NCBI GenBank assembly: GCA_903915225.1
Contig: CAIWSB010000089.1
Span: forward strand, 5,835-69,834
DNA from: an uncultured Candidatus Woesearchaeota archaeon
GTDB taxonomy: Archaea > Nanobdellota > Nanobdellia > Woesearchaeales > B29-G15
Direction of reading: 5' to 3'
DNA length: 64,000 nt
The translations under genes were made by a program, and so were the position numbers. Below the pieces are notes generated by a model, which did not search any database, was not told the DNA's origin, and was given only the letters and a program-made list of their open reading frames with translations. Numbering within the stretch: position 1 is the first letter of the stretch; each line of letters starts with the position of its first letter. Below, one piece after another: positions 15,355 through 34,113 of this stretch.

Positions 15355-16824
15355 CTAGAAAATAAACTTAAGGATCAGACCCAGGATTACACCTGCTGCT
15401 GCTCCAATCCCCAAACCCCATAACATACTCGCTGCAGGGAGTTCAAGTGCGAGCCAGACGATTAAACCCACTATGACTCCAACAATTGCACCAATTAATG
15501 CAAGCCTTAGGATATTTTTATTCTCTGAAGAGCTATCTTTCGCACATGCATCGCCCTTTCCATCCTTGTCTGTGTCCTTTTGGTCAGCGTTTGCCACATC
15601 AGGGCAGTTGTCGCACACATCCCCCAATTTATCTCCATCGCTATCTGTCTGGACAATATTTACTTCGGAAACGCAGTTGTCGCATGCGTCTCCCACACTA
15701 TCACCATCTGTATCCAATTGGTCTACGTTCTGGATATCAGGGCAGTTGTCCTTGTCATTTAAAATCCCGTCATGATCTCTGTCGTTGTTTAACGAAGGAC
15801 CTGAAGTCACTGTTGTTGTGGTTGTCTGTAAGGGGTTGCTTTGGATATATCTCATACATGAGTTTGAGTCGCACTGCCCAATGGTTGCGAAATCAACCCA
15901 GACAAATCCCTCGCCTGTACACTTCACATTTTCTCTCTGGTTGCCTCCCCAAACATCATCGGGTGAGTGTGAGCAGCAACAGCCCTTGGTGCATTCATTC
16001 CAGTTGGCAAAATTAATTGAGTTCATCATTGCGCATGCCACTGAGCCCTCCTGGCAGGTATCGGCTTGGTAATAGAAGAACCAGTTCTTGAGGCAGTCTG
16101 CCTGATCCTTGGGGCCATTTTCGTTTCCGGTGGCATAGGCTTTTGGGTCATCTGCCGGGCAGCACTCTTTTGCAACCTGGTTATATGTGCAGGGGCTTGT
16201 CTTAGGGTTTACGCAGCATCCGCTCTTCTCCTGTTCTCCCCCTTGGCAGATGCTGTTTGTGCAGCCACCAGGGCACCAGTTCGTTGTTTTCATGCAAGAG
16301 CCACTTGAACAGAAATATTCAGCAGCCCTGTTGCTCCCATCGCAATCGTCCACAAAGCCATGCCCTTGGGCGTCAATACAAATGCTCTGGACATCAAAGT
16401 TTTTTCCATCTGGATGGGCTGCGTCAACATCAAAGTCCTTGCATGTTCCTAAGGGAACGTTACCATAGCTCTTGCGGCAAACCCCTTTATCTATATCGCA
16501 GCCGAACTCGCATTTCTCTTCAGTAGACATGCAGAAAGGGGGATGACACTGGTAGCAGAACCATTCCTTAAGTGTTGACAAACTAAGGCATTCATCTGGT
16601 ACATTAGTTACTGTGCCATCGCTGCATGTTCCCCACTCGTAAATCTTCCTCCCATTATCAGTCTCAGAGCATCCAGAATATGGTGTCGCAATGGTGGTAG
16701 TTGTGCCACAACCAACCCCGCCGACACTCCCTCCACACTTGGGGGATGTAGAATCTTCAGCAGAAACAATTATAGGAACAAATAGAAATAATATAAGTAA
16801 AACCAGCAGCACCCTTTTAAGCAT
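15355..16824 (-). CDS. Secreted cysteine-rich protein with thrombospondin type-3 (TSP3) calcium-binding repeats and a C-terminal TM anchor.
   Basis: Signal peptide, then about 60 Cys residues in repeated modules. TSP3-like repeats ([26 protein letters not shown]...[34 protein letters not shown]) precede C-terminal hydrophobic helices. Confidence 0.7.
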   Translation of the reverse strand: MLKRVLLVLLILFLFVPIIVSAEDSTSPKCGGSVGGVGCGTTTTIATPYSGCSETDNGRKIYEWGTCSDGTVTNVPDECLSLSTLKEWFCYQCHPPFCMSTEEKCEFGCDIDKGVCRKSYGNVPLGTCKDFDVDAAHPDGKNFDVQSICIDAQGHGFVDDCDGSNRAAEYFCSSGSCMKTTNWCPGGCTNSICQGGEQEKSGCCVNPKTSPCTYNQVAKECCPADDPKAYATGNENGPKDQADCLKNWFFYYQADTCQEGSVACAMMNSINFANWNECTKGCCCSHSPDDVWGGNQRENVKCTGEGFVWVDFATIGQCDSNSCMRYIQSNPLQTTTTTVTSGPSLNNDRDHDGILNDKDNCPDIQNVDQLDTDGDSVGDACDNCVSEVNIVQTDSDGDKLGDVCDNCPDVANADQKDTDKDGKGDACAKDSSSENKNILRLALIGAIVGVIVGLIVWLALELPAASMLWGLGIGAAAGVILGLILKFIF

Positions 16825-16869
16825 TTTAAGTCGGTAATACCTTATACTAGTATTTAAAATTTTGCATAA

Positions 16870-18684
16870 TTAAATCAGGCCGAACAGTGAGCCAACTATT
16901 CCTCCAACAACACCGCAGGCAAACACAAGGGGCAAAAGTATTGGGGCGAGGGCAGGCACGGTGAGTGCAATAATCCCTCCAATAACCCCACCAACTATAG
17001 CGCCGAAAAGTGCATACTGTTGGGTCTTGTTTGAACTACCATCGCAGGCATCCCCCTTACCATCACTGTTAGTGTCCTTTTGGCTGGGATTGGATTTGTC
17101 AATGCAGTTGTCACAAGCATCCCCCACTTTGTCATCATCCCCATCCGCCTGATCCTGGTTGGGGGTTTCAATGCAGTCGTCGCAGGCATCACCCACCGAA
17201 TCTTTATCAGTATCACTCTGGTCTGCATTTTTTACAAAAGGGCAATTGTCGCAAACATCGCCAATCTGGTCCAAATCAGAATCCTTCTGATCAGGATTGC
17301 TAACATCAATACAATTGTCCATGGCATCGCTAATGCCATCCTTATCTATGTCTTCAGAAGAGGCTGGAGGTTTTATCGAAGATTGGTCATCGTTAACGAT
17401 TTCCTCAGCTGTTCCCCCCATTATTTTTGCGCAGGCCTCATTGCTGCATTCATTAATCTCTCCAAAAGATTTCCACTGCTGCTGGCTTCCGCCGCATTTT
17501 ATCTTGGACAGTTGAGAGCCCTTCACAAATCCTGATGGGGAGCGCTCGCAGCAGCAGCCCTGTTCACAGTATCCCGCATTGTCAAAATTCGCTGTGGTCA
17601 TCTGGGCGCAGGCATCATCACTGCTATAAAAGAAGAACCAATCGCGGGAGAGGCATTGCTGCCTATCTTTTGGACCCACTTCTATGGGGGAAACATATTG
17701 GGTTGTATCCTCTGGACAGCAAAGGCTGGCTGATTCGTAATACGTGCAGGCATTCTTTTTGGGGTTGAGGCAGCAGCCCCCCCCTTGAGTCATTTCTGGC
17801 TGCTCAACGAGGCACGCACCGGCAGCGCAACCCCAGGTGCATTTCTGCATTGCATCCATTGCACAGCTGCCGCCCAGGCAATAGAATTCCTGGATATGGC
17901 ACCTGTCACCTGAGCAGGAATCAACATATTCAAAGTTAGTTCCATCATCAGTGAGGACGCATTGGTCAGTCCAAGATTTGAGCCTGTCATTGCAGGTCCC
18001 CTGGACGAAAAAGTCCTTTGAATTGTCTGTCTCTGAACAATCCTGCCGAGGCTGCTCTGTAGCCATTGGAATCTCAATTGTTGTAAAAGTCCTGACCTTG
18101 CAAGCCCCATTCTCGCAGCCCAGCGGGCACCAATTGTCCTTTGGGAGGCATTGTGATTCTGGTTGACTATTGCACTCTCTGCCGTGGCAGCCTCCGCTAG
18201 GAGTTGCCGGACCGCAGTAGTATTCCTTTAAGCGATTGCCATCACAAGTGTCTGGAAACTCCTGTTCACTTCCTGTCCCAATGCCATCTGTGCAGAGCCC
18301 ATTAACCTCTGGAAAAATCCCTTCGTCAGTGTCATCGCAGCCAGGCGCGGGGTAAGTAATTTTTGTTCCGCTGGGCAGACAGGCGCCATTAAGACAGCCA
18401 TTGTCGCACCAGGCGTCGTTTGGCATGCAAAGCCCCTCTCGGCAGTAATACTCGGTTAGCCTCACAGGGTACCCGGCGGCTTCGTAGTCACACTTGTCAA
18501 TAACTGTTCGGGTGGCATCCTTGCACACGCCTTGCATATAGACATTGAATCCGCCATCCTCCTCACAGCATGTGCCACTGTTATCCAAATAACAGACCGA
18601 GTCCCCACAATCGCAGGCTGCTGCAATTCCTGCGCATAGTATCATAGCGAGCAACAGTGCCAAACAGAACCTCATTAATTTCAC
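16870..18684 (-). CDS. Secreted cysteine-rich protein with TSP3 repeats (a paralogue of the 15355-16824 gene) and a C-terminal TM anchor.
   Basis: Same architecture as the 15355-16824 gene. It has three CxDTDxG...C..GC..GAC modules, a shared GCC(V/L)NPK..CTY...CCP.D...GPKD..CL module, five TSP3-like repeats (DxDxDxxGDxCDNCP), and a C-terminal TM. Confidence 0.7.
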
Positions 18685-18880
18685 CAGTTTTGCTATGGAG
18701 ATTTGTAATATACTAATATAAATAATTTAGGGTAAGGACAGCCGTGAATAAAAAACAGTAAAATTAGCCCCGTACATAATGGCAAAGAGTAACGGATTCT
18801 AGCGAAACTTTGCACGATGTGCACAAAATATCTGTTTTAAGATTTTTTTGTTATTATAGAGTGATTACACTTCGAAAGGT

Positions 18881-18890
18881 TTATAAATAA
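18881..18890 (+). promoter_or_regulatory. TATA box of a leaderless promoter for the 18917-31557 operon.
   Basis: TTATAAATAA lies about 30 nt upstream of the ATG at 18917 in an AT-rich intergenic region. There is no SD sequence, consistent with a leaderless archaeal transcript. Confidence 0.4.
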
Positions 18891-18916
18891 GCCCAAATGC
18901 CTATCTTCGAGGGACA

Positions 18917-19693
18917 ATGGTGAATATTGACATTACAGGTAACTGTAACCAGAGATGCGAGTTTTGCTACCAAACCCTGGATGGCTCAAGCCTGCCAACC
19001 GACGTGATTTTGGACGTGGTTCAAGAACAGAAGAGCGATAGCAGCGTCCAAGTGGGTGGAGGAGAGCCAATGCTTGATCCTCGGATATTGTGGCTAATAG
19101 AAAAATTTGTTGACATGGGGAAAAGGGTGCACATTGCCACCAATGGGACAGTTATTCCAGAGGGGCTTTTAGACCTTGAAGAGACTGTCAAGAAAAACGT
19201 CGAGATTCAGGTGAGCCTCCATGCATCCAGCCCTGAGCTTTACAAGAGCATTACTGGAACTGATTTTTTCGACAGGGTTTTAGAAAATATTGGGGCTTTG
19301 AAAGCCCATTTCACAACTCTCATCACAAGTGTGGTTTATCAGAGAAATTATGGTGATATGCAGAATATCATTGACTTGGCCGAGCAGATGGGCTTGCCGC
19401 TGCGCGTGAACCTTGTCTTCCCAGTGGGGCTCGGCAAGGATGTGATTCGGCTGACCTCAAAGCAGGTTGAAGGGCTGCGCGGGCTGCTGCTGGCTGAGAG
19501 GCTGGGAAAAAAGGGGATGATTGATTCGCCGCTGGTGCATGCCGAAAGCAACTGCCATGCGCTGGAAGTGGCATATGGAATCCCACGAACAGGGCAGTGC
19601 CCGTTCGACCTGGGGAAGCTCTATGTTGCCCCGAGCGGTGAGAGATTTGGTTGTGAATTTTATAGAAAGAAGGAAAGGAGGAATGAAAAATGA
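18917..19693 (+). CDS. Radical SAM enzyme with a C-terminal twitch/SPASM-like Cys motif.
   Basis: CNQRCEFC (CxxxCxxC) near the N-terminus, a GGGEP SAM-binding motif, and C-terminal GQCPFDLGKLYVAPSGERFGCEF. Confidence 0.75.
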   Translation: MVNIDITGNCNQRCEFCYQTLDGSSLPTDVILDVVQEQKSDSSVQVGGGEPMLDPRILWLIEKFVDMGKRVHIATNGTVIPEGLLDLEETVKKNVEIQVSLHASSPELYKSITGTDFFDRVLENIGALKAHFTTLITSVVYQRNYGDMQNIIDLAEQMGLPLRVNLVFPVGLGKDVIRLTSKQVEGLRGLLLAERLGKKGMIDSPLVHAESNCHALEVAYGIPRTGQCPFDLGKLYVAPSGERFGCEFYRKKERRNEK

Positions 19694-21261
19694 CTACTCA
19701 ACCAACATGCCCCACGGGCCAAATGGCCATTAGGGCAAATGAAGAAAAGACAGTTAATGAAAAGACATATTATATTCCAAAAGCTTTGAAGGAAGATCTT
19801 GAGACAGTTATTGCCACATTGTCTGATATTGATAAATTTGGCAAGGAAATGGGTCACAGAAATATCCTTCTGACAGGCCCGCCTGGGACAGGTAAAACAC
19901 TGGGCGCAAGATTTATCGCATACAAGACCGGCTTTGTTTACTATGACGGCAAGAAGCTCTCTTCTGCCTTTGACATAATCAAGGTTTTTGATGAGCTCAG
20001 AAAGCAGGTTAAGGAAGGCAAAAAGGCAATCCTGATGCTTGATGAAATCGATAGGTTCTCTAGCAGGGAAGAGAGCAACGACCCGGGCCAGGTGCAGATG
20101 CTCAACCAGCTTCTGGCAGAGCTGGATGGAGTGGAATCCAACAACGGCATATTTGTCATAGGAATGACCAACATGCCAAACAGGATTGACCCTGCGCTGC
20201 GAAGGCCGGGACGATTCGGCAAGGAGATTGAGTTCATGCCCCCTGATGAGCAGGGTAGGCTTGAGATTCTCAAGATCCATGCAAATGGCAAGGGTGGCCA
20301 TCAGTTCAAGTTTGACCCAAAAGATGTTGAATATTTGGCTTCTGTCACATATGGATATACAGGCGGTGACCTGCGCGGCCTGCTGGATGAGGCCATGGCA
20401 CGCGCCAACCTCAGAAACTCCCTAAATGTAAAGAGGGAAGATTTGGACTTTGCCAAAGTAAGGATTAAGCCTTCTGCAATAAGGGATATGCCATTCAAGG
20501 AACCAAAGATTACAGTTGATGATATTGGTGGGTATGCCCTACATAAGGACTTGCTTGGGCAAATAGTAAGCAGCAAGCAGGGCGGGAACATTTTGTTCTA
20601 CGGACCTCCTGGAGTTGGCAAGACCACATTTGCAGAAGCGCTGGCCAAGCAGTATGGGCTTAACCTCATTGTTGTCAGCGGTTCTGCACCATTGGACAAG
20701 TATGTTGGTGAAACCGGGAAGAAACTCGAGAAATACTTCGACAGGGCCAGGCAGCTCGCGCCGTGCGTGCTGCTTTTTGACGGCTTTGACGCACTGATTG
20801 AGCGCCGAGGATTTGTTTCATGGGCCTCAGATTGGACAGGGCTGATTGAATCTAAGCTAAGTTCACCCATGGATGGGGTTTATGTCATTGCCACAACAGA
20901 AAAGCCAGAGCTCATCGGGCCAACACTGCTGGAGAAGTTCAGGCACAGGGTTTACTTCCCAATGCCACAGGCGGAAGAGGTCGCTGAGATTTGGGCAAGA
21001 TACCTTCCCGATGGCATTAGCCCAGAGACTATCAAGGATGCCAACCCACGGCTCAATGGTCTTGATATTGCCAGGGTCATGGGCATGATTAAGGATTTCG
21101 GCATCGAACCTACTACAGAAATCCTGACACAACTTGTGACAGGCATAGAGCACGCAACAGACCTAGAACAGCCTTCGCTCACTTTCCGGGATGCCAATGG
21201 GGATTCCATACAAGATTACCGAAAGATTAAAGCCTTGCTAGGAGGGCAAAATGGCGCTTGA
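19690..21261 (+). CDS. Tandem AAA+ ATPase (two AAA domains, CDC48-like, no N-domain).
   Basis: Walker A GPPGTGKT and Walker B LMLDEIDRF, then a second GPPGVGKT and LLFDGFDAL. SRH-like GMTNMPNRIDPALRRPGRF. It overlaps the upstream gene by 4 nt (ATGA). Confidence 0.8.
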   Translation: MTTQPTCPTGQMAIRANEEKTVNEKTYYIPKALKEDLETVIATLSDIDKFGKEMGHRNILLTGPPGTGKTLGARFIAYKTGFVYYDGKKLSSAFDIIKVFDELRKQVKEGKKAILMLDEIDRFSSREESNDPGQVQMLNQLLAELDGVESNNGIFVIGMTNMPNRIDPALRRPGRFGKEIEFMPPDEQGRLEILKIHANGKGGHQFKFDPKDVEYLASVTYGYTGGDLRGLLDEAMARANLRNSLNVKREDLDFAKVRIKPSAIRDMPFKEPKITVDDIGGYALHKDLLGQIVSSKQGGNILFYGPPGVGKTTFAEALAKQYGLNLIVVSGSAPLDKYVGETGKKLEKYFDRARQLAPCVLLFDGFDALIERRGFVSWASDWTGLIESKLSSPMDGVYVIATTEKPELIGPTLLEKFRHRVYFPMPQAEEVAEIWARYLPDGISPETIKDANPRLNGLDIARVMGMIKDFGIEPTTEILTQLVTGIEHATDLEQPSLTFRDANGDSIQDYRKIKALLGGQNGA

Positions 21262-22252
21262 ACAGCTTACAGAAAGGAAGGTTGCGTTCAGGAGTGTTGC
21301 ACCAACATATATACTTGAGCTCTTGGCCAAGGGCCAGAAGTTCGTGCCATTCCAAGGCCAAATTGACCCTAATAGCCTGCCACCTGGATACACAATAATG
21401 GAGATGCAGTACAAAGGCACTACTTTCAAAGCCATTGTCCCGCAGACACTCCTGTATTTCATGGCAAATCCTGGCGAGGGTAACGCTGATGGGGCTCTTG
21501 ACGAGCTGGCTGAATTCTACCGCGAGATTGAGGGCGTTGAGAACAGCGCAATTGCAAATGGTGAGACAAACCTCCAATTGGGCAAGTTCGGGCAATGGGC
21601 CAGGGAATCCTACGGAACGTATCTAATCAATAAAATAATTAGAATTAGGGGAGGCCAGGATGAGGAAGGCCAACCGCTAAGCGAGCTGGATCCAAAGGTA
21701 ATGGAAAGGCTTGGGCTTAACGACCCTTATGTTCTTGAAAGGATTAAAGCAATTGCAGCTGTTAGGCTCGGCAAGCGCTCGGACCAGGTTCAGGCGCACG
21801 ATGTCGGAGCCCTGCTGAAACATGTGACAGTCAGGGGCACTGGAAAAACAGAGCAATTGAGCAGGCCTGAGCTTGAGAGGGTTGCCTGCCACTGCGGGAG
21901 CCACTACGAGCTCAAGGCAGAGTTTAGGAATGACCCAAATTACTCATATCATGTTGTTGGCTACCAAGGCTCTAGAACTGAGAAAAAAATTGAGATATCA
22001 ACATTTGACCCCAAGGTTAGCCTGCTGGAGAAGGAGATTGTTGACCACGTGAAGGAGAAGAACGGCGGTAAGTTAGGTCCGCATGATGTTCAGATGCTAA
22101 GGACAGTCACAAACCTGCGCTACATTGCCCCTGAGAACCCGCGGGCACAGTTAAGCACAACTCCTCACGCCACACCTGCTGCTGAAAATGAGTTGACAAT
22201 CTACAAAGTGGAAGAGGGGACACCGAAACCAGATGAAGTCAAGAAGGTGTAA
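21251..22252 (+). CDS. Hypothetical protein (333 aa), co-operonic.
   Basis: It overlaps the AAA gene end by 11 nt and is 5 nt from the next gene. I recognise no motif. Confidence 0.5.
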   Translation: MALEQLTERKVAFRSVAPTYILELLAKGQKFVPFQGQIDPNSLPPGYTIMEMQYKGTTFKAIVPQTLLYFMANPGEGNADGALDELAEFYREIEGVENSAIANGETNLQLGKFGQWARESYGTYLINKIIRIRGGQDEEGQPLSELDPKVMERLGLNDPYVLERIKAIAAVRLGKRSDQVQAHDVGALLKHVTVRGTGKTEQLSRPELERVACHCGSHYELKAEFRNDPNYSYHVVGYQGSRTEKKIEISTFDPKVSLLEKEIVDHVKEKNGGKLGPHDVQMLRTVTNLRYIAPENPRAQLSTTPHATPAAENELTIYKVEEGTPKPDEVKKV

Positions 22253-22257
22253 AACCA

Positions 22258-23870
22258 ATGCCGCTGCAAACCATTGCTGGAGAGGACAAGCAGCATGCTG
22301 AGCTGCTACGCCTACTCCAAGCTATGGGGGAAATAAGGCGCGGGGAAGAAACTGGAAACCCCAATCTGGAGAAAAGGGATAAATACCTTGGCCTGAGCCA
22401 GGAATTTGGCGAGCTTCTGGACAGCATGCCTGACATTAAGGTATCTGTTAAGTATCTTGTTCAGCGTGCTGAAAATGGAGAGGGAGCAGAGTATGACCCA
22501 TATTTTATTGAAGCCTGGGAACAGATTTACCCGGATTTTATTAATGTGCTCGAGAATCTGACTATCCAGCTAATGGGCGATGACCTTGCGGGTTTCAAGA
22601 GCACACACCACATTTGGAACGCGATAAAATATCTATCAACAGAAGGCAAGCCCTTGAAAGACAGCCTAAAAGTTTATGACACAATTCTCCCTGTTCAGCC
22701 ATCGCTTGATCTCAAGGGATTCACAGTCACGGGAATTGAACCAAGTGATGGTATCCTCACATTAGGGCGTGAACCGGATAAATTAGAAGATATAGTAAAG
22801 AGGGCTTCCCAAATCGGATTCAAACGCTTGAGGACCGAAATTGACCTAAACAATCCTACGGATTCTCAATCTGCTGTGCTGACGAATTACAGGAGAAAAG
22901 ATATCACACCGAATAAGGGTGTGGCTGCAAAGAAAAATAAGAAAGGCCTTTTCGAAAGGATATACAATCCTGTCACGGCGATCCCTTTAAATTTTATAAT
23001 TGGGGGGTTACCAGCTAAAATTCAGGTATGGATTAGTGAAAAATATAAGAAGAAAGGGCTAGAGATTAACTCAGATGTGTGTAGTGGATACAATTGGATG
23101 GGGGAAACTGTGATGAGTGCCATTGCAGCTGTGGTTTGCCCCTTAACATTAGGGTTATGGACGGTTGGCCCAACTGCAGGATATTTTGGGTATTCAATAA
23201 TAAGATTTATTTGGTCGGCTGTTAAAGATACAAGACAATTGGAAATGCTCTCTGGAAAATCCCTCTTCTGCCAGTTGAATTGGCAATACGTAATAAAGAA
23301 AATCCAAAAAAAGGAGCTAAAAAACCAGAGAACTGGGCCCTGATGGAGATTGAATTGGGGTCTGTTAGAAACGTAAATAGGGGCTTTGCCCAAATATATG
23401 AGCCAGTTTCAGAAAACCTCCACCCTTCGATGAGGAGATTGGCTGAGGTTCAATTGGATCAAAAGCAAGAGGATAACCTTGTGTATTCTCCAAAGAACCA
23501 CAACTACCAGGGAAGCCTATTCCGGGATGCCTTGCAGGTTCAAGGGAGTGGGGCTGTAGTGTTAAGGGAATTGGATAAATGCGACCTCTACAGGGATCTC
23601 AGTGCAATCACATTCTACAAAGTCATGACCGAACACAAATACAGTAAGACATCTGCATTGGTGTGCTACCAAAACAGGCGTTATGCAATCACCTTGGTAA
23701 CACCAAATGAATTTGAGCCAAAGGAGCTCCCAAAGCTATTGGCAGACACATCTAAGCCAATTGAAGAAAGAGTTGAGGGGCTTGCGAAATCATCAAGAGC
23801 ATTATACGCCCACGTGACCCAATTTGAAAAATGCCAGAAGACAGCAGACCTGGTCTGGAGGCAGGGCTAA
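22258..23870 (+). pseudogene. Frameshifted copy P1 of the tandem paralogue family, as two ORFs 22258-23343 and 23280-23870.
   Basis: The N-terminal ORF aligns with the N-terminal 360 aa of P2 and the C-terminal ORF with the C-terminal 190 aa of P2. They sit in different frames with a -1 shift near 23275-23285, which is not a homopolymer tract. Confidence 0.55.
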
Positions 23871-23871
23871 G

Positions 23872-25467
23872 ATGGCAATCCAGAAAATAACCGGAGAGGA
23901 CAAGCAGCATGCCCAGCTTTTGCAATTACTGGATGCAATAGAAAACATCAGAATAGCTGAGCAAAACGGAGAGGGTTCACCAAAGCAGAGGGATACGTAC
24001 CTTGGCATGAGCCAGGAACTTGGAGAGCTGCTGACAAGTATGCCCCAAATTAAAAGCCAGCTCAATAATCTTAAGGCTCTTTTTGAGAAAGGCGAAGGAA
24101 AGAGCTACGACCCATATTTTGGAGATGTATTCCGAAAGACAAGCCCTGAAATTACCACCGGGCTTGAGAGCCTCACAATCCAACTCTTGGGAGATGACCT
24201 GGCTGGATTTGAAGACACCCACCATATGTGGAATGCAGTTAAATATCTCACATCAACTGGCAAACCAAAGGCAGAGGTGCTGAAGATATTTGATCAGATT
24301 GTGCCAATGCAGCCCTCACGCAGTTACAAGGGGCTGGATGTGGATGGCAAAGAGCCAACTGAGGAAATTCTATTTGTCGGGCGACCGCCTAAAGAGTTTT
24401 TGAGTTTAGCAGCAAGGGTTGGGAATGCTGGGTTTAAGACCCTTCGGGCAGAAATCGATATGAATCATCTTACTGAAGAAGAAAGAGCTATGTTCTCTAA
24501 GTGTAAAAACTTGAGGGTTCCTGCGCAAGGGGAAGATAAAAATAAATCTCGCGTAATCAGGTTTTTGGACCGGGTTTACAACCCTGCCACCAGAATTCCA
24601 ATACATTTTGTTGTAGGGGGGCTGCCAAAAAAGGTTCAGAAATGGGCAGTAGATCAGCTCAATCTTGCTGCAAAAAACAATTATATTTATGAGGAGGATA
24701 CAACATTAGCCAATATAATTGGGGAAGGTGTATTAAGTGCAGGTGCTGCTGTCGCATGTGGGCTGACTTTAGGGCCTTTAACATGCATCCCTGGAGCGGT
24801 ATATTTTGCTTACACTGGCTTTAAGGGACTTGTTCAATTTATACAAGAATCGGATGCTTCTGACCGCCTTATCTGCGGAAACCTGTTCTGGAAGCTACCA
24901 CTCCTGCCATTTGAATTGAAAATTCGCAGGGAGGAAAAGGAAGGAAAAAGTAAAGCCAAGGAAGATTGGGCGCTCATTGATTTTAAGCTAGAGGGTTATT
25001 ATCGAAAGGTAAGCAAACAGGACAAGCACAACTTCCATCCTGTGTTGGACAGCCTCGGAGCAATAACAGTTGATGCCACAGTTGAGGAAAACCTAGTCCA
25101 TACACCAAGCAACCACAACTCGCAGGGTTACAATTTCAGGGAAGCTCTCTTAGCAAAAACCCCACAGTTAGAGCAATGCGTGCTCAACAGGGAATATGAC
25201 GCAGTGACCTCATTTAATGTCTTGCCTGTGGACAATTACTCAAAAATTTCTGCCTTGGTGTGCTTCAAAGGTCAGCGCTATGCCATAACAATGGTTACGC
25301 CCGGGGAATTCAGGCCTCAAGAGTTGTCGGCACTGCTTGCTGATTCAACAAAGCCGATAGGAAAGAGGCTAGAAGGAATTGCTAAGAATTCAGGCGCAAT
25401 ATACGCTCACATTACTCAGTTCACCAGCTGCCAGAAGACAGCTGATTTAGTTTGGAGGAAGGATTAA
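23872..25467 (+). CDS. Paralogue P2 of the novel family (uncharacterised, ~530 aa, central hydrophobic segment).
   Basis: Shared motifs: LTIQLLGDDLAGFEDTHHMWNAVKYL, VGGLPKKVQ, a hydrophobic stretch, NHNSQGYNFREAL, SALVCFKGQRYAITMVTPGEF, YAHITQF..QKTADLVWR. I take the start at MAIQKITGEDKQHA (23872), 48 nt downstream of the ORF-track start at 23824. Confidence 0.65.
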   Translation: MAIQKITGEDKQHAQLLQLLDAIENIRIAEQNGEGSPKQRDTYLGMSQELGELLTSMPQIKSQLNNLKALFEKGEGKSYDPYFGDVFRKTSPEITTGLESLTIQLLGDDLAGFEDTHHMWNAVKYLTSTGKPKAEVLKIFDQIVPMQPSRSYKGLDVDGKEPTEEILFVGRPPKEFLSLAARVGNAGFKTLRAEIDMNHLTEEERAMFSKCKNLRVPAQGEDKNKSRVIRFLDRVYNPATRIPIHFVVGGLPKKVQKWAVDQLNLAAKNNYIYEEDTTLANIIGEGVLSAGAAVACGLTLGPLTCIPGAVYFAYTGFKGLVQFIQESDASDRLICGNLFWKLPLLPFELKIRREEKEGKSKAKEDWALIDFKLEGYYRKVSKQDKHNFHPVLDSLGAITVDATVEENLVHTPSNHNSQGYNFREALLAKTPQLEQCVLNREYDAVTSFNVLPVDNYSKISALVCFKGQRYAITMVTPGEFRPQELSALLADSTKPIGKRLEGIAKNSGAIYAHITQFTSCQKTADLVWRKD

Positions 25468-25468
25468 C

Positions 25469-26665
25469 ATGGATAACTTAGGAAATTATGTTACTATTGA
25501 ACTCACTGACAAGGACGTGCAGGTGCACATTGACAGCATTGTCAAATCTATGGAGGCCATACGCCAGGATGCCCTCACAGAGCGGGGCTTCAGCCAGGAT
25601 CAGGCTGATGATTACGTGCACCTGGCAACCAGGCTTGCATCAGCCATGGAAGGCTTGGCAAACGAACAGTTGGGCAAGAAAGTCAGGAGCCAGATTACAA
25701 TTGCCAACAGCAACCCCAAGCTGGTACTCTTTGACAGCCTCCAATCAGATTACTGGGGCAAAAAGAACAAGGAATTTTTACGAGGGCTTGCCCAGATTAC
25801 TGTCCAGTTCATGGGTGATGATTTCCGCGGCTTGGGCGACACGCACCATTTCTGGAACGCAATAAAATACCTGGGATGCGTTGGGCTCCCATCGGAGCAG
25901 CGCTCTGTTGTGCTTTCAACAATTGTTCCTTTCCATACCCCTGATGGCCTAAAGCCAAAAATCAAGAAGGGCAAGGGCGACGGGCTAACTGTGGTTGTGC
26001 CAAAGGCAGGCGCACTACCTGATGCAGTTGATGCTGCCAAGAATTACGGCTTTACTGCTGTGAGATTTAAAGCAAATCATCGAGAGCTGGCAGAGATAAA
26101 GAAGCAATATCCATCTATTAATTTAGTTGGAGTTGAGAACCAGACCGCAAACGACGCAGATGTAATTGCCGAGGTTAGGGTTGCCAGCATTGGGGAAAAT
26201 GTCAAGCACAATTACCATGCCAAAATTTGTGAAATTGCAGAGCTCCAGCTGCCTGATGCAGCTGAACAGAACCTGACTTGGAGCATGAGGAACCATAACA
26301 CCCAAGGAAAGGATTTTGAGAAGGCAATAAGAGCACTTTTGGAGAAGGGCATTGAGTACCGGTCCCATCTAAACAGGGAGTGCAATGCATTATCATTATT
26401 CAACAGGACCGAGTTTGGGCCTTGGCAGAAGGTCTCTGTTGTGGTGTGCTTCCCAGGGCAAAGGTATGCTTTGACTTATGTATCTCCAAGAGAGACTTCA
26501 CTGCCAGATTTCCAGCCAATAAGCACTATCCTTGCTGCAAGTGAAAAACCGCTTGAAAGGAGAATCGATGAAGAGCTTGCAACTGCATTAAACGCAGAAT
26601 ATGCCCACATAGGCCACTATGTAAAAGGTGCCCTGGCAGGGGACTGGATTTACAGGAGGGACTAG
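25469..26665 (+). CDS. Paralogue P3 (short form, lacks the central hydrophobic segment).
   Basis: QFMGDDFRGLGDTHHFWNAIKYL, NHNTQGKDFEKAI, VVCFPGQRYALTYVSP, YAHIGHY. Confidence 0.65.
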   Translation: MDNLGNYVTIELTDKDVQVHIDSIVKSMEAIRQDALTERGFSQDQADDYVHLATRLASAMEGLANEQLGKKVRSQITIANSNPKLVLFDSLQSDYWGKKNKEFLRGLAQITVQFMGDDFRGLGDTHHFWNAIKYLGCVGLPSEQRSVVLSTIVPFHTPDGLKPKIKKGKGDGLTVVVPKAGALPDAVDAAKNYGFTAVRFKANHRELAEIKKQYPSINLVGVENQTANDADVIAEVRVASIGENVKHNYHAKICEIAELQLPDAAEQNLTWSMRNHNTQGKDFEKAIRALLEKGIEYRSHLNRECNALSLFNRTEFGPWQKVSVVVCFPGQRYALTYVSPRETSLPDFQPISTILAASEKPLERRIDEELATALNAEYAHIGHYVKGALAGDWIYRRD

Positions 26666-26685
26666 GAGAAGCGCTTTGAGGCGAT

Positions 26686-28332
26686 TTGATGCAAAAGATA
26701 GACCTGATACAAGCCAACGGGGAATTGCTCTCCTCAAGGGAAGAGCTTGGTGATATTATCACCAGGATGGAGAACTTAAGGACTAATTTTAAGGATAAGG
26801 ATGAGCAAAAAAACCAGTACCTTGTGCTGGCCGGGCAGGCTGGCGAACTTATCCAGAAGATTTCTGGTCTGGAGGCAAGATTAGACCGGCTAATCAAAAA
26901 AGCTGAGAGAGATTTTACTACCAGGGGCTATGACTCATCCAGAGATAAGCTTTGGTATGCTGCTGAACCTGGTTTCATGAAAGATCTCGAGATGGCGACA
27001 GTCCAGTTGCTGGGGGATTCCTACCGCGGAACAATAGATAGGCACCACATCTGGAGTGCCGTGAAAGTCCTGGCCGGCCAAAACCTCCAAAGGCGTGAAA
27101 TGATTGAGCTTTATGACACAATCCTGCCAAGAAATTCGCAATATTTCATTGTAACCGGAAACCTCAGGAAATTGTTTGGGCTGCCTAGGAGATCCACAAT
27201 AAAGGGAGGCGTGCTGGAAATAGACTGGGGGGTCAAGGATATTGATGAGATTGTAAAAAAGGCTGGGAAAATGGGTTTAGAAAAGGCGGGGTTTTGGTTT
27301 GACGACGTTAAACAGTTGTATAACCCTCAAATTCCAGGCATCATAGTAAAAGTCCAATCCAAAGGCTTGCCCGTGTCAGATATAAGGCTGCTAAAGGGCT
27401 TGTTCAAACAGAAATGGCTAACATACCCCTTTCTTGGTGCCCTCCCTAAGAAAATCCAATCTACAATTGCAAATTACTTAAACAATAATGATATGAGAAA
27501 ATTGTACTCACCAAGTGCTGCTTCGCAGTGGAGCCTCGGTATTGAGGCCGTTGGGCTAACTGCTGCCGGAATTACATTAGCTGTCACTGTAAGCCCTTGG
27601 CTTGCATTCCTAATTGGAGGAGGCTTAGTGGGAGGGTTGTTTATACGTGGCCCATTGCTTGGTCTAGGAGGTTGCAACGATTATCTGCAAAGTAGAAACA
27701 AGAACGACTCCGATGACTGGGGCCACTGCAGCTACTGCTTCCGCAAGCAGGCTGACAAACCATTAGGGAGCGGCTTCCTTAAGCCATTTTTCTGGCCAGT
27801 CGAAAAATTAGTCGAATCCAATAGGTCACCAAATGCAATGGGAAACCCCCGCTGGGCTGTTGCTGAGATTCCCCAGAAAGCTCAGGCAACCCAGTACCTC
27901 AACAATTACCACAGCACACTTTGCAAGATGGCAGGAACTCTTTTTGAACCAAGCCTTGAGCAGGATCTTGTGCTAAGGCCAGAGAACCACCACAATGCGG
28001 GGAAGGCGTTTGAGGCTGCGCTGAGAGCTTTGCCTGACTTCCCAAAGACTGCTTTAAGACTTTCTGAAAGGAGCAGAGAATACAACGGGATGGCGGTTTA
28101 CGAAGAAGAAATTGGAACAGAGCAAAGCAAGCTCTCTGCCTTTGTCTGCTTCGCCAACGAAAGGTATGTTGTCACAGTTGTTAAGCGAGGGAATACTGGT
28201 GTTGATAGTATTATTCAATCACTCTCTGCTGGAGATACAAGAGGGCTAACAAATGCAGTGAATGCAGATTATTTGCACCTCACACATTTCAAGGAAGGAA
28301 AGAAGGTTGAGGATTTTGTGTATCTGAGGTAA
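26686..28332 (+). CDS. Paralogue P4.
   Basis: VQLLGDSYRGTIDRHHIWSAVKVL, LGALPKKIQ, a long hydrophobic segment, ENHHNAGKAFEAAL, SAFVCFANERYVVTVV, YLHLTHF. Confidence 0.65.
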   Translation: MMQKIDLIQANGELLSSREELGDIITRMENLRTNFKDKDEQKNQYLVLAGQAGELIQKISGLEARLDRLIKKAERDFTTRGYDSSRDKLWYAAEPGFMKDLEMATVQLLGDSYRGTIDRHHIWSAVKVLAGQNLQRREMIELYDTILPRNSQYFIVTGNLRKLFGLPRRSTIKGGVLEIDWGVKDIDEIVKKAGKMGLEKAGFWFDDVKQLYNPQIPGIIVKVQSKGLPVSDIRLLKGLFKQKWLTYPFLGALPKKIQSTIANYLNNNDMRKLYSPSAASQWSLGIEAVGLTAAGITLAVTVSPWLAFLIGGGLVGGLFIRGPLLGLGGCNDYLQSRNKNDSDDWGHCSYCFRKQADKPLGSGFLKPFFWPVEKLVESNRSPNAMGNPRWAVAEIPQKAQATQYLNNYHSTLCKMAGTLFEPSLEQDLVLRPENHHNAGKAFEAALRALPDFPKTALRLSERSREYNGMAVYEEEIGTEQSKLSAFVCFANERYVVTVVKRGNTGVDSIIQSLSAGDTRGLTNAVNADYLHLTHFKEGKKVEDFVYLR

Positions 28333-28336
28333 CAAG

Positions 28337-30025
28337 ATGAAGCGACAAGTTGTCACAAAGGCACCGCCGAAAACAGGCGCAAGCCATGATTTGATCAAGC
28401 TACTTGACTCAATGCAAGCGCTAAGGGAACAGCAGCGCATCTCAAAGCTGGACTCAATTAAACTCGATGATTACCTTGTGGCAGCTGGTGAGCTGGGTGC
28501 TTACCTTGAGCAGTATGAAGGGAGCGACTTTAAAAAAATTGCCACAGCTATCGCAGGAAATGCCAACCTCAGGTTTTATGATGCAGATAGGGACTTGGCA
28601 TGGAGGGTAATTGAGCCCGAGATGTTAGAGCTTCTAGATGGAATAATTGTGAAAGCCATGGGGGACGACTTCCGCGGGCTGGAAGACAAGCACCACTTCA
28701 TGAATGCTGCAAAATGCGTAATGTGCAAAGACTGGGAGCTGGAAAAAAGGATTGAAGTCTATGACACTGTACTCCCTGTTGTGGATTCAAGTCAAGCACT
28801 TAACATTGCAAATAATATTGGCCAAATTAGCGGAGACACTCTAAAGATTAATTTAGACGCCAAGGATTTGGATACAAGGATAAAGCAGGCAAAAGATGCG
28901 GGGTTCAGCAAAGTTGTAATCAGATTTGATTATACTAAGGATAAGGAGAAGATAATAAAATTAAAGAGAATTTATAACGGAACAATTACTGATGTAGCGC
29001 AACCAAGCGGACCAAATAAGAATACAATTTTTAAAAACCGCCTGTTAGGGGTGCCTGCATTCCTGCTTGTAGGCGGTCTGCCAGCCTCGTTGCAGAAAAG
29101 GATTCAAAACGCGTTTACTATGAGAGGTTATAGCTCATTTAATAGTGAGTCGACAACAGCCGCTAACGCACTATTAGAAGGAGCAGCTTCTTTCTCCCTT
29201 GGTTTTTGGGCATTGCACCTTGGCCCAATTGTTTACGTGCCACTATTCGCATACTTTGGATTAGCAGCAATACCCCGAATTGCAAGTTTGATGAAAAATT
29301 CAGACATAGCTGTAAAAGACAAGAATGTTTTTGGCAAGGCAAAAGCCAGACCAATAGGGTCGCTAATTGCCAAGATTCCGCTTTATCCTGCGGAACAAAT
29401 ACTCAATCTAGCGTGCGGGAAGGTCAATTATTACCCAAAAGAATACACAATTAACTTTAACCAAGCTACACCATTGGGTGCCTTTGATAATCGTTTCATG
29501 AGATTAGCCCGAGCTCAAGCAACAACTGCCGCTCAGAAAGCGCTCCCTGAAAAGCCTCAGTTAAAAATCCCTCCGGCACCCAATTATCATCCACTTATGG
29601 ATAAGGCAGCATTAATTGCAGTTAACGCTGAGGCTGAGGAGAGCCTGCGATATAGGGTTACGGCACACCACAGCCAGGGTAACCTGTTCCGAGATGCAAT
29701 GAACCCTAAAGGATTGGAAGGGTTTGGAAGATACCTGGATAAGCCCAGAAACTCGCTCACATTTTTCTCGACTTCAGAGCAACAACCTTACAGAAAGTTC
29801 TCAGCATTGGTTTGTTTCTCAGGGGAACGCTATTCAATCACTCTTATCGGTAAGAATCAAATTGCAGCGCAGGCAATCTCCGAGAAGCTATCTGATGGCA
29901 AAAAGCCTCTTGATGCCAGGCTAAAAGAGATTGCGGAATTGGCCGAAGCTGATTACGCACACCTCACTTATTACAAACAGGGACAGAAAGCAGAGGATCT
30001 GATCTGCAGGGGGGTTGCTGCATGA
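28337..30025 (+). CDS. Paralogue P5.
   Basis: KAMGDDFRGLEDKHHFMNAAKC, VGGLPASLQKRIQ, a hydrophobic segment, AHHSQGNLFRDAM, SALVCFSGERYSITLIG, YAHLTYY. Confidence 0.65.
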   Translation: MKRQVVTKAPPKTGASHDLIKLLDSMQALREQQRISKLDSIKLDDYLVAAGELGAYLEQYEGSDFKKIATAIAGNANLRFYDADRDLAWRVIEPEMLELLDGIIVKAMGDDFRGLEDKHHFMNAAKCVMCKDWELEKRIEVYDTVLPVVDSSQALNIANNIGQISGDTLKINLDAKDLDTRIKQAKDAGFSKVVIRFDYTKDKEKIIKLKRIYNGTITDVAQPSGPNKNTIFKNRLLGVPAFLLVGGLPASLQKRIQNAFTMRGYSSFNSESTTAANALLEGAASFSLGFWALHLGPIVYVPLFAYFGLAAIPRIASLMKNSDIAVKDKNVFGKAKARPIGSLIAKIPLYPAEQILNLACGKVNYYPKEYTINFNQATPLGAFDNRFMRLARAQATTAAQKALPEKPQLKIPPAPNYHPLMDKAALIAVNAEAEESLRYRVTAHHSQGNLFRDAMNPKGLEGFGRYLDKPRNSLTFFSTSEQQPYRKFSALVCFSGERYSITLIGKNQIAAQAISEKLSDGKKPLDARLKEIAELAEADYAHLTYYKQGQKAEDLICRGVAA

Positions 30026-31557
30026 GAACTGTTGTCATCCAAGCCCCGGAGAGAGACAAGTCTCTAGTGAAGCTGCTAGACTCCATGGAAGACATCCGGC
30101 GACAAGAACTCGCAAAAGGAGAATCTGAAAGCACCCAGCAGAACGAGTATCTCATACTGGCTGACAGACTGCGCTCGGAACTAAAACCAAGATTGGGCGT
30201 TGCAGAGGACTTCGATAAGATTGTTGCCATTTTGGCTGATAAACCCCATCTCATGCATTATGATGTATCCAGCGAAAGCATGTGGCGGCAGGTAGAGCCG
30301 GAGATATCTGAGCTTTTAGATAGAGTCTTAATTGAAGCAATGGGTGATGATTTCAGAGGAGTTGCTGACAAGCAACATGTGCTCAATGCAGCAAAGTGCG
30401 AAATGTGCGCCAATTGGCCACTGAAAACCAGGCTTGAGGTTTACGATTATGTCAGACCGGTGCTTGACTCAAGCAGAACCCTAAACTCAATCACAAATGT
30501 GGGGGAGATAATTGGCAACGGAACTGAAATTCTAATTAAGGGAATTCCAAGGGACCTTGAAGAAAAAATCAGGCAAGCTGGGGAGATGGGCTTCAAATAT
30601 CTCATATTGAGGGCAGATTATTATGAAAACAGGAAAGATATAAAAAAAATGAGGGGGAGAAAGGGATGGGAGATAAAGGGCATGGGTGCCCAGAGAAGCC
30701 CCGATAGATCTTATACCCCGAGAATCATGCAACGCCTCTATCCATTGATAGGAGCACTTCCTGCCTCGTTGCAAAGAAGGGTGTATATTAATCTAGAGAA
30801 AAAGGGGATAACCTATGATGAGATGACTCCGAGTATGCGTAATTCTGCCGCATCAATAGTTACTGACATGATAACTGCAGGAGGTTTGATGCTGCTTACC
30901 CAAAACCCTTTGGTTTATGTTCCTGTTTTTGGATTAATTGCAGTGGATTACCTTAGGCTATTGTACTCATTTGGAACAAGCATGTTTAGGAACAACATCG
31001 GCAGAAACCTCAATAAGCCAATGGGCTCCCCTGTTGCAAAAATAGTCCTATTTCCAATTGAGCTTATCCTCGGCGGGGTTTACGGCAAGGTTGCGTACAA
31101 TCCCTTAGAGATTAAGATACACTTAGACCAGGATGGCAAAGAGGAGCAGACTGCACCAAACCTCCATCCAATAATGGAAAAGCTGGCATCTAGTGAAGAT
31201 GGGGCCAGCAACTTTGAGCTGGCGGAAAAATTGAAGGCGCAAGCCCCTGGAACACCAATTCTCACTAGCCAAAGCAATAAAAATGATACTTTCACCTTGT
31301 ATAATATAGTCTCCGATTGTTCCCCGTTCAATAAGCTCTCAGCACTGGTCTGCCTCAGCGGCGAACGTTATGCAATAACAATTATTGGGACAAATGAAAT
31401 CAATTTGGAGCAAGTTTCTGAGACGCTTTCTGATGCAAAACTCCCGATTGAGCAAAGGCTATGTGAGATTGCAGAGAGGAGTGGAGTGCGCTTTGCACAT
31501 TTAACACACTACAGCCAGGGTAAGAAAACAGAGGATATGGTGGCTTATTCCAATTAG
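30022..31557 (+). CDS. Paralogue P6.
   Basis: EAMGDDFRGVADKQHVLNAAKC, IGALPASLQRRV, a hydrophobic segment, SALVCLSGERYAITIIG, FAHLTHY. It overlaps P5 by 4 nt. Confidence 0.65.
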   Translation: MRTVVIQAPERDKSLVKLLDSMEDIRRQELAKGESESTQQNEYLILADRLRSELKPRLGVAEDFDKIVAILADKPHLMHYDVSSESMWRQVEPEISELLDRVLIEAMGDDFRGVADKQHVLNAAKCEMCANWPLKTRLEVYDYVRPVLDSSRTLNSITNVGEIIGNGTEILIKGIPRDLEEKIRQAGEMGFKYLILRADYYENRKDIKKMRGRKGWEIKGMGAQRSPDRSYTPRIMQRLYPLIGALPASLQRRVYINLEKKGITYDEMTPSMRNSAASIVTDMITAGGLMLLTQNPLVYVPVFGLIAVDYLRLLYSFGTSMFRNNIGRNLNKPMGSPVAKIVLFPIELILGGVYGKVAYNPLEIKIHLDQDGKEEQTAPNLHPIMEKLASSEDGASNFELAEKLKAQAPGTPILTSQSNKNDTFTLYNIVSDCSPFNKLSALVCLSGERYAITIIGTNEINLEQVSETLSDAKLPIEQRLCEIAERSGVRFAHLTHYSQGKKTEDMVAYSN

Positions 31558-32195
31558 CCAGACCAGCAAGAGCCTAATGTCATCCAGTTGATGAAGCTAT
31601 TGTACTCAAGATAGCCCACCTGCCTCCTCGTGCAGCCCGGCTGGATAAAAACACTCACCGGAATTCCTGTTACTTGATACTTTTGCACATCAGCATTGCC
31701 ACTGCTGGCATAAATTCTCTCAACCACAATGTTGGGGTACTCTGCCTCAACCTGGCTTATGACTGGCTTCTCCTTTTCACACCAACCGCAGGTATCGCTG
31801 TAAAAGAACTTTAGGGTTCCACTAATTGAACTGCCTTGACGGGTGGTTGTCGTTGTGAGCCTGCTAGTAGAAGAGGTATGCAGTATAGTTGTGAAAGTCA
31901 TTCCAGAAAACTCTATTGGAACAAATACCGGGTTGTTAATGCACCTGCCGAAAAGGCAGCCGTTGGGGCAATTGCTGCTTGAAGCTACACAGCCATTGCT
32001 GCCGCAGGAATACTCAACCAAGATAGTTAAGTCAGCTGAGCAATAATCGGCCTTCTCGCCGATGCCGTCTGTGCATTTGCCGAATTTGGAATAATCCTTA
32101 CCGTTGTCTGTATCACTGCACTCACCGTAGACTAACCCGGCAAGAAGAATAAATAGGATTAAAATAGAAACGCCTTTGAAATTAATTGTAACCAT
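31554..32195 (-). CDS. Secreted fusion of a Cys-rich CxDTDxG module and a thioredoxin-like (CGWC) domain.
   Basis: Signal peptide. The module CSDTDNGKDYSKFGKCTDGIG...CPNGCLFGRC matches the modules in the 15355-16824 and 16870-18684 proteins. The C-terminal region carries a CGWC (CxxC) thioredoxin-fold motif (FFYSDTCGWCEKEKP...TGIPVSVF). Confidence 0.6.
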   Translation of the reverse strand: MVTINFKGVSILILFILLAGLVYGECSDTDNGKDYSKFGKCTDGIGEKADYCSADLTILVEYSCGSNGCVASSSNCPNGCLFGRCINNPVFVPIEFSGMTFTTILHTSSTSRLTTTTTRQGSSISGTLKFFYSDTCGWCEKEKPVISQVEAEYPNIVVERIYASSGNADVQKYQVTGIPVSVFIQPGCTRRQVGYLEYNSFINWMTLGSCWSG

Positions 32196-33669: not shown

Positions 33670-34113
33670 TTATCCTATGTAATTCTCTTCCCCTTTCTCA
33701 ACTGAGATTTTTGGCATTGGGATTGGCGGCGGCAACGTCACCTCCTTGCTTAGGGCTATTGCCTCCACATTCGCTCTGCTTAGGGCATAGTTGAGGATTC
33801 CTGGTGCAATGTCGCTTGGGATTTTCTTGTCCTTCTTCCAGGATTTTATCGTCTCATCAGCCTTCTTCTTGTCAGTCAGGTAGAAAACCTCTCCTATGAT
33901 GGAAATGTGCGATTCCGAAGGGTCGTAATGGGAGACAAACTCAAACTCAAAGCGCATCCCCTTCATATCCTTGTCAATTTTCGCGCCAGATGCAGAGAGC
34001 TCATAATCTTCAACATTTCTTATCGCAATGTTATTTCTTATGCTAATTTTCCCTTCAAGCTGTTTTTTCCTTTCAATCTCAATCTTTGTGAATCCAAATC
34101 CTACAATTGCCAT
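33670..34113 (-). CDS. Hypothetical protein, 147 aa.
   Basis: Compact ORF between cysS and ileS. I recognise no motif. Confidence 0.4.
   Translation of the reverse strand: MAIVGFGFTKIEIERKKQLEGKISIRNNIAIRNVEDYELSASGAKIDKDMKGMRFEFEFVSHYDPSESHISIIGEVFYLTDKKKADETIKSWKKDKKIPSDIAPGILNYALSRANVEAIALSKEVTLPPPIPMPKISVEKGEENYIG

Follow-up and report, generated by a model that had tools for sequence, protein, structure and literature searches.

A probable composite accessory region at the valS-cysS junction of a Woesearchaeota-like archaeon: Cys-rich surface-protein genes around a radical SAM-AAA ATPase cassette

In a 64-kb stretch of DNA from an uncultured Candidatus Woesearchaeota archaeon (contig CAIWSB010000089.1; the whole stretch analyzed is referred to below as the window), the genes for valyl-tRNA synthetase (valS) and cysteinyl-tRNA synthetase (cysS) are separated by genes of two kinds. 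Two genes for large Cys-rich surface proteins and one for a Cys-rich/thioredoxin fusion lie at the edges of the interval; between them is an operon (18917-31557) encoding a radical S-adenosylmethionine (SAM) enzyme, a tandem AAA ATPase, a 333-amino acid (aa) protein that we call p333, and six paralogous proteins (par1 to par6). The interval is probably composite: an accessory region that occupies an otherwise tight valS-> <-cysS junction and combines a layer of surface-protein genes with an unrelated cassette. The genes and other features are listed below by window coordinates, strand and description.

12917-15352, + strand: valS (valyl-tRNA synthetase), left boundary; Pfam tRNA-synt_1 and Anticodon_1
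15355-16824, - strand: 489-aa Cys-rich surface protein; open reading frame (ORF) with Pfam TSP_3
16870-18684, - strand: 604-aa Cys-rich surface protein; ORF with Pfam TSP_3
18685-18916, no strand: divergent intergenic region of 232 bp, read from the sequence
18917-19693, + strand: radical SAM enzyme, 258 aa; Pfam Radical_SAM
19690-21261, + strand: tandem AAA ATPase, 523 aa; Pfam AAA, two domains
21251-22252, + strand: p333, 333-aa cassette-specific protein; ORF
22258-23870, + strand: par1, frameshifted; ORFs 22258-23343 (361 aa) and 23280-23870 (196 aa)
23872-25467, + strand: par2, 531 aa
25469-26665, + strand: par3, 398 aa, without the membrane hairpin
26686-28332, + strand: par4, 548 aa
28337-30025, + strand: par5, 562 aa
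30022-31557, + strand: par6, 511 aa
31554-32195, - strand: Cys-module/thioredoxin fusion, 213 aa; Pfam Thioredoxin
32232-33638, - strand: cysS (cysteinyl-tRNA synthetase), right boundary; Pfam tRNA-synt_1e, 370 bits

The genes are tightly packed. The 489-aa gene converges with valS across a space of two bases, and the genes for par6 and the thioredoxin fusion converge with their stop codons overlapping by 4 nt. The right-hand junction (cysS, thioredoxin fusion, par6, par5) recurs in an independent assembly and is therefore not a chimera. On our reading of the sequence, a TATA-like TTTATAAATA occurs at 18880-18889, approximately 28 nt before the start codon of the radical SAM gene, and is a candidate promoter for the operon. 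The genes surrounding the interval belong to the core translation machinery, in the order ABCE1, valyl-tRNA synthetase (ValRS), the interval, cysteinyl-tRNA synthetase (CysRS), a 147-aa unknown, and isoleucyl-tRNA synthetase (IleRS). The best match to ValRS, 69% identical, comes from the Woesearchaeota metagenome-assembled genome (MAG) JAFCCU010000002 (locus L001), a similarity that puts the organism among Woesearchaeota-like DPANN archaea. A preliminary description of this DNA, made from the sequence alone, had listed the genes of the interval with the 4-nt convergent overlap, had recognized TSP3 repeats and radical SAM, AAA and thioredoxin domains, and had pointed to a Cys-rich module common to all three flanking proteins. 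The ORFs are exactly as it claimed, the domain identities are confirmed by Pfam scores above cut-off, and the module is indeed present in all three proteins. Its 'one small hypothetical' inside the interval could not be identified; the 147-aa unknown lies beyond cysS (33670-34113).

Both large flanking proteins are rich in cysteine (8.2% in the 489-aa protein, 9.4% in the 604-aa protein), and both pass the gathering cut-off of 25 bits for Pfam TSP_3 (PF02412), with 37.7 and 27.6 bits, respectively. Each begins with a signal peptide, continues with two (489-aa) or three (604-aa) Cys modules, a second, larger Cys-rich domain termed here the 'CC domain', and TSP3 calcium-binding repeats (about five in the 604-aa protein), and terminates in a double, glycine-rich transmembrane (TM) anchor. 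The Cys module follows the pattern C-x-D/E-T/S-D-x-G ... G-x-C-x-D ... Y/F-x-C ... C-x1-3-G-C-x2-3-G-x-C. It occurs in six copies, the sixth of them in the thioredoxin fusion, and this last copy matches the other five with E values of 1e-7 to 1.7e-10 (BLASTP). The CC domain, which is absent from the preliminary description, is marked by the motif GCCxNP...CCP...GP...WFF...GCCC. The positions of both domains are as follows.

16474-16671 and 16246-16443, - strand: Cys modules of the 489-aa protein, one copy degenerate
18379-18570, 18100-18339 and 17812-18039, - strand: Cys modules of the 604-aa protein
31941-32120, - strand: Cys module of the thioredoxin fusion
~15829-16218 (489-aa protein) and ~17386-17775 (604-aa protein), - strand: CC domain, from alignment of the two large proteins

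A six-frame translation of the 64-kb window contains no further occurrence of the head or tail motifs of the Cys module, and neither this module nor the CC domain has a Pfam match even at E<=1. Among 1.5 Mb of related loci, the module was found only at L001 and at the Pacearchaeota locus L048. At two DPANN loci a gene of this general kind adjoins valS: a giant TSP3-repeat protein (>925 aa, 8.3% Cys) at L020 (2756-5533, - strand) and a 956-aa protein with two Cys modules at L048 (3423-6293, - strand). The vicinity of valS may be a recurrent site for surface-protein genes, or these two cases may be due to chance. Outside the interval, the window also encodes a 436-aa lamin-tail protein (PF00932, E 8e-15; 8462-9772, + strand), which is probably another surface protein.

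The third flanking protein combines a signal anchor, one Cys module, a Thr/Ser linker and a thioredoxin domain (nt 31557-31823) that passes the Pfam Thioredoxin (PF00085) cut-off of 23.5 with 28.3 bits and carries a CGWC active-site motif at residues 136-139 (nt 31779-31790). A word-indexed homologue search with this fusion returned only the fusion itself, and no DsbB, VKOR or CcdA partner for the thioredoxin was seen in the window. Taken together, the genes at 15355-18684 and 31554-32195 would represent a family, shared at the level of the lineage, of disulfide-rich surface proteins that are extracytoplasmic, anchored in the membrane and calcium-binding (TSP3), accompanied by a secreted thioredoxin-fold oxidoreductase. 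Through the shared Cys module, the thioredoxin is probably brought to the same surface layer or partner as these likely adhesins, whose many disulfides it would form, or shuffle and isomerize. With moderate confidence, we describe the flanking proteins as a putative calcium-stabilized, disulfide-rich surface layer or adhesin set, whose disulfides would be made or isomerized by the predicted thioredoxin.

The valS-cysS junction was compared across 80 related loci fetched with ValRS. In at least 11 of the 80 (L003, L013, L018, L021, L022, L033, L036, L045, L054, L064 and L070), the two genes are convergent and lie only 14-1300 bp apart; in four more, cysS is divergent and just upstream of valS. 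The gap measures 16.9 kb in the window versus 6.8 kb in L001, 6.5 kb in L029 and 2.6 kb in L040, and the contents of the last two gaps are unrelated (a rhodanese-like and an ELP3-like gene in L029, unknowns in L040). Because the adjacency is widespread, the 16.9-kb gap consists of extra material, and the comparison supports regarding the interval as accessory. A conserved adjacency is thus interrupted, as in a genomic island, and the distribution of the cassette is patchy, since it is absent from the L001 junction and sits at unrelated loci in other genomes. The distribution of the Cys-rich genes is not patchy in this sense: they are common to the window and L001.

The composition of the interval is native. 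GC content is flat (0.44-0.50), the segment at 19-31.5 kb has a tetranucleotide distance usual for the window (z about -0.5), and the codon-usage correlation of the cassette and its GC content at third codon positions (GC3) fall inside the range of the other window genes. Only the genes for the TSP3-repeat proteins deviate in tetranucleotide usage (z 3.5), as expected from their Cys/Asp/Gly amino-acid bias. No tRNA gene lies in or beside the interval, there are no flanking repeats (the sole repeats in the interval are those between paralogous coding regions), and none of the interval's proteins has an integrase-like Pfam match. Elsewhere in the window, a tRNA-Asp gene at 52418-52492 (- strand) was reported by ARAGORN only, and a tRNA at 52294-52358 (- strand) by Rfam only; the latter aligns to model positions 7-64 and may be truncated, intron-containing or atypical. 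The preliminary description had called the interval an island and had proposed compositional comparison and alignment of the valS-cysS interval in related genomes as checks. Its view that the material is extra stands, relative to the widespread adjacency; the composition, tetranucleotide and codon comparison revealed no foreign signature for the operon, and mobility genes and flanking repeats are missing as well.

The sole reasonably close relative available is L001, of which we read 22 kb (MAG JAFCCU01). Its proteins are 69% (ValRS), 68% (ABCE1) and 65% (CysRS) identical to those of the window. Between valS and cysS, L001 encodes four secreted, TM-anchored, Cys-rich proteins; three have Cys modules and a CC domain, with or without TSP3 repeats, and the remaining one, of 830 aa, joins a papain-family C1 protease to a CC domain. 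Just beyond cysS is a 533-aa protein consisting of TSP3 repeats, thioredoxin, CC domain and TM segment. The N-terminal half of the window's 604-aa protein is 38% identical to a 467-aa protein of L001, and the CC domain is common to both large window proteins and all five L001 proteins (L001 positions 13440-13499, 17072-17134, 18460-18522 and 21621-21683). From these architectures, the CC domain would act as a common stalk that carries different heads in L001. The L001 thioredoxin is joined to TSP3 repeats, a CC domain and a TM anchor, whereas the window fusion is joined to a Cys module; in L001 the enzyme would be targeted via the shared CC domain and anchor.

No radical SAM, AAA, p333 or par gene is present in the 22 kb of L001 that were read. 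Because L001 shares the Cys-rich/thioredoxin set at the junction, this association predates the split of the two genomes and the operon is the variable element; by this comparison, the surface-protein layer at the junction would be older than the cassette. The alignment of related intervals therefore gave a divided answer, with the Cys-rich proteins being lineage context and the cassette missing from the region read. An alternative is that the whole interval is ancestral to the lineage and that L001-like relatives have lost the operon. Native composition and codon usage, the absence of mobility genes and flanking repeats, and the Cys-rich genes at the same place in L001 all agree with such a history, but we think it improbable: most other DPANN loci with both synthetase genes have a 14-1300-bp gap with nothing comparable inside, longer gaps hold other content, and the cassette is found at unrelated positions in other genomes.

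Outside this junction, the gene order radical SAM-AAA-(optional extras)-p333-par recurs in about 10 other genomic places (L082, L083, L086, L088, L090/L094, L098, L099, L101/L102 and an ENA contig of ERZ27297570), where par is present in one or two copies, sometimes followed by a hairpin-less variant. L099 is a 333-kb archaeal contig, and L090 and L094 encode near-identical proteins and are probably one lineage sampled twice. The neighbors of the cassette vary by locus and are mostly housekeeping genes (ScpA, AlaX-like, GatB, SRP54, ribosomal proteins, RIO kinase, TrmB). Beside the cassette in these other loci there is no homologue of the Cys-rich proteins, no genuinely Cys-rich ORF and no credible thioredoxin. 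The compartments of the two gene sets also differ: the cassette encodes Fe-S/SAM and ATP-dependent enzymes, none of its proteins has a signal peptide, and the flanking proteins do have signal peptides. Together, these results indicate that the operon is a self-contained cassette, independent of its flanks, and that the 'bracket' of surface-protein genes around it is positional, not functional.

The preliminary description had taken the shared module to tie the flanks into one functional unit, possibly extracellular adhesins and their oxidoreductase. Extended to the operon, this explanation would, for example, have the disulfide-rich adhesins matured or exported by the radical SAM enzyme and the AAA ATPase, with the paralogues as membrane machinery. 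Tight packing, with a 232-bp divergent promoter region at one end and a 4-nt overlap at the other, the same right-hand junction in a second assembly, and the membrane association of the par proteins could all be cited for it. We nevertheless give it little chance, because the cassette occurs about 10 times elsewhere without such flanks, the 22 kb read of L001 contain the flank genes but no cassette, both soluble domains of the par2 model lie on one, presumably cytoplasmic, side of the membrane hairpin, and nothing in the cassette resembles a secretion ATPase or translocon. What survives of the proposal is its outer part: the three flanking proteins plausibly work together as adhesins and oxidoreductase, a reasonable pairing that recurs in L001 and in which the operon is not included.

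The rarity of the cassette is evident from database searches. Apart from par2 itself, a word-indexed search with this protein found a single relative, at 76%; the par family, with 159 members at E<=1e-3, was revealed by an exhaustive profile search of 1.84 billion representatives, and par-bearing loci were retrieved with an 8-member par alignment. p333 is represented by 41 clusters among 5.8 billion proteins. A viral origin of the cassette was considered; no relative of p333 or par was found on IMG/VR viral contigs at pattern-level sensitivity. Several side observations bear on its biology. A TrmB/MarR-type winged-helix regulator is encoded just upstream of the cassette at L082 (1034-1765), L088 (56-772) and L099 (2150-2851), and upstream of a lone par gene at L085 (9386-9877); it may be dedicated to the cassette, although none is adjacent in the window. 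The lone par genes of L085 (9950-11638) and L091 (10001-11602) have no radical SAM, AAA or p333 gene in the 10 kb upstream, and par is therefore not always encoded with the rest of the cassette. L101 and L102 (GCA_001821945.1, MHOX01000020) come from a bin labelled Candidatus Staskawiczbacteria, of the candidate phyla radiation (CPR) bacteria, and represent either an inter-domain transfer between ultra-small symbiont groups or a mis-binned DPANN contig; compared with L102, L101 has a split AAA gene and lacks one gene.

The first cassette protein scores 73.3 bits against Pfam Radical_SAM (PF04055; cut-off 29.5). It contains exactly six cysteines, three in a CX3CX2C motif at residues 10-17 (C10, C14, C17) and the others at positions 213, 228 and 246, and all six are invariant in an alignment of eight cassette orthologues. 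This conservation suggests that, as in enzymes with a twitch domain, the three C-terminal cysteines bind a predicted auxiliary Fe-S cluster. Among solved structures, SkfB, viperin and MoaA come closest, at ~30-38 bits.

The second protein matches the Pfam AAA model twice (188 bits) and p97 with an E value of 3.9e-78 (phmmer against PDB). It is a tandem resembling D1-D2 of p97/Cdc48 with no N domain: the alignment to p97 begins at D1, and only ~55 residues precede Walker A. Walker B is intact (DE) in D1 and reads DG in D2, where glycine replaces the catalytic glutamate ('VLLFDGFDA', residues 360-368). D2 may accordingly bind ATP without hydrolysing it. The third protein, p333, has invariant residues that include ANPGE (72-76), C213, S217 and H218; its structure prediction used database homologues. 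p333 and par have no match in Pfam, NCBIfam, PADLOC or PHROG, and PDB sequence searches with par and p333 profiles were likewise negative.

The six par copies in the window, versus one or two at other loci, are the largest expansion seen. At 22-48% pairwise identity, they are old and not recently diversified copies. par1 is split by a 1-nt frameshift near 23236-23250, with the frame switch around 'acaattggaaatgc' and no homopolymer at the site. In ERZ1426812, a 3.7-kb contig, an intact 537-aa gene occupies the same position, immediately preceding a par2 copy of at least 90% identity, and the frameshift is therefore a strain-specific pseudogene or an assembly error. The predicted structure of par2 (predicted local distance difference test, pLDDT, 85.6) comprises an N-terminal helical domain, a small alpha/beta domain, a hydrophobic helical hairpin (274-325) and a C-terminal alpha/beta domain that, in the model, looks T-fold-like. 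The N-terminal domain has invariant residues Y43, Y79, D80 and H118; a HEPN-like Rx4-6H motif in this domain was considered and rejected, as neither par1 and par2 nor the wider family conserve the Arg.

Features of these proteins and of their distribution could also be read as those of a conflict or anti-virus defence system, a mobile island gained in a variable spot, in which a viperin-/MoaA-like radical SAM enzyme makes a modified nucleotide and an IetA-like AAA ATPase acts with diversified par effectors whose T-fold would be a nucleotide-binding sensor. In PADLOC, the radical SAM enzyme is matched by pVip models with 54.7 bits and the AAA ATPase by IetA models with 146 bits, the cassette is rare and patchy and sits at varied loci, par copy number ranges from 1 to 6, and a Y1 transposase and an NYN protein are encoded nearby in L082. 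However, the scores fall far under curated cut-offs (viperin, NF038283, 41.9 versus 180; IteA, 133.7 versus 510), there is no IetS-like partner protease, no other protease domain and no nuclease in the cassette, the neighbors are mostly housekeeping rather than defence genes, the par copies are old, viral contigs gave no match, and PHROG matches are limited to the first two cassette proteins and do not extend to p333 or par. We regard a defence role as unlikely, if somewhat less so than either of the alternatives discussed above.

The reading that we favor is thus of a composite region in which the segment 18917-31557 would be a self-contained, cytoplasmic and membrane-associated cassette, placed between genes of the surface-protein layer. 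Its components would be a radical SAM enzyme of twitch-like type, a p97-like tandem AAA ATPase that has no N domain, the novel p333, and membrane-hairpin par proteins with a T-fold-like C-terminal domain, here expanded to six paralogues. With low confidence, we suggest that par proteins would either be modified by the radical SAM enzyme or receive from it a purine- or pterin-like ligand for their T-fold-like domains, and that the AAA ATPase, with p333 as adaptor, would unfold, remodel or assemble par at the inner face of the membrane. A broader proposal, which we put forward only tentatively, is that the operon is an undescribed four-component DPANN system (one copy being on a CPR-binned contig), in which a radical SAM enzyme, a p97-like unfoldase and a new-fold p333 act on membrane-tethered T-fold proteins, either installing a radical-SAM modification or making or sensing a purine- or pterin-derived molecule.

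Several points weigh against this account. The composition of the interval is native and it has no integrase, tRNA gene or flanking repeat, so that the direction and timing of any insertion would be conjectural. L001, with its 22 kb, is the only reasonably close relative available, and its genome may have lost the cassette or may carry it elsewhere. A functional link between flanks and cassette that is specific to this genome may exist. The T-fold assignment is weak: the best Foldseek match is a T-fold enzyme, but it is not significant (E 0.16), and 44 par members showed no recurrent Pfam similarity even at E<=10.

The tiny DPANN archaea live as episymbionts and attach to their hosts by means of surface proteins. 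A disulfide-rich, calcium-binding surface family with its own surface-targeted thioredoxin would be a candidate for the symbiont-host interface, and would exemplify extracellular disulfide chemistry in these archaea. A literature search found nothing describing Cys-rich/TSP3 proteins of DPANN archaea, and the two Cys-rich domains, used modularly with protease and thioredoxin heads, appear to be new. The most interesting object in the interval is the cassette, in which two protein families without known relatives are linked to radical SAM chemistry and to an unfoldase of the p97-like type, both of them well-understood engines. Because it is rare and conserved in gene order, it is tractable for the discovery of a new radical-SAM reaction or membrane-associated system. 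Our literature search found no description of a radical SAM-Cdc48 neighborhood, and the p333 family, the par family and the four-component cassette appear to be new with respect to the literature searched. Should there truly be a link between T-fold and radical SAM, the cassette could turn out to be a new system; if the four-component reading is true, it could be a new symbiont-host or anti-virus signalling device. The locus also carries a warning for annotation: when genes on either side of an operon share domains, the reason can be that the operon was inserted into a cluster already present, rather than any link in function.

The components were compared with the closest known systems. Like the window proteins, TSP3 surface proteins such as MtsC of Myxococcus and OmpA-linked forms are extracytoplasmic and have Asp-rich, DxDxDG-type calcium-binding repeats beside a membrane anchor. 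Matches to MtsC (NF047638) reach only 68.4 and 79.5 bits against a cut-off of 350 and cover the repeat region alone; the anchor of the window proteins is a C-terminal double TM segment versus MYXO-CTERM or OmpA, and their N-terminal Cys modules and CC domain set them further apart. The thioredoxin fusion has, like DsbA/ResA/TlpA-type oxidoreductases, a signal anchor and a thioredoxin fold with CxxC, and is encoded beside disulfide-rich secreted proteins. Unlike them, it is joined to a substrate-like Cys module, and it lies below all NCBIfam cut-offs and only just above that of Pfam.

Among the cassette proteins, the radical SAM enzyme shares with MoaA, viperin and SkfB the CX3CX2C motif, a partial TIM barrel, and three extra C-terminal cysteines as in the auxiliary cluster of MoaA. 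It is only 258 aa long, and its NCBIfam scores of 42-66 bits against cut-offs of 180-400 (65 versus 325 for MoaA, TIGR02668) leave it outside every curated family. The par proteins show no sequence similarity to the T-fold enzymes FolB, FolE/FolE2, QueD, QueF and uricase; to our knowledge, fusion to a helical domain and membrane hairpin has no counterpart among characterized T-fold enzymes. The AAA ATPase has the classical D1-D2 tandem of p97/Cdc48/VAT. It differs from them in having no N-terminal substrate/adaptor domain and a D2 without the catalytic Glu, in its score against TIGR01243 (Cdc48/p97; 222 bits versus a cut-off of 803) and, unlike p97, in always being encoded with radical SAM, p333 and par genes. 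TSP3 surface proteins, secreted thioredoxins, radical SAM enzymes and p97-like ATPases are all known kinds of protein, and the members encoded in this window score below the curated cut-offs of every specific family against which they were compared (MtsC, viperin, MoaA, Cdc48 and IteA).

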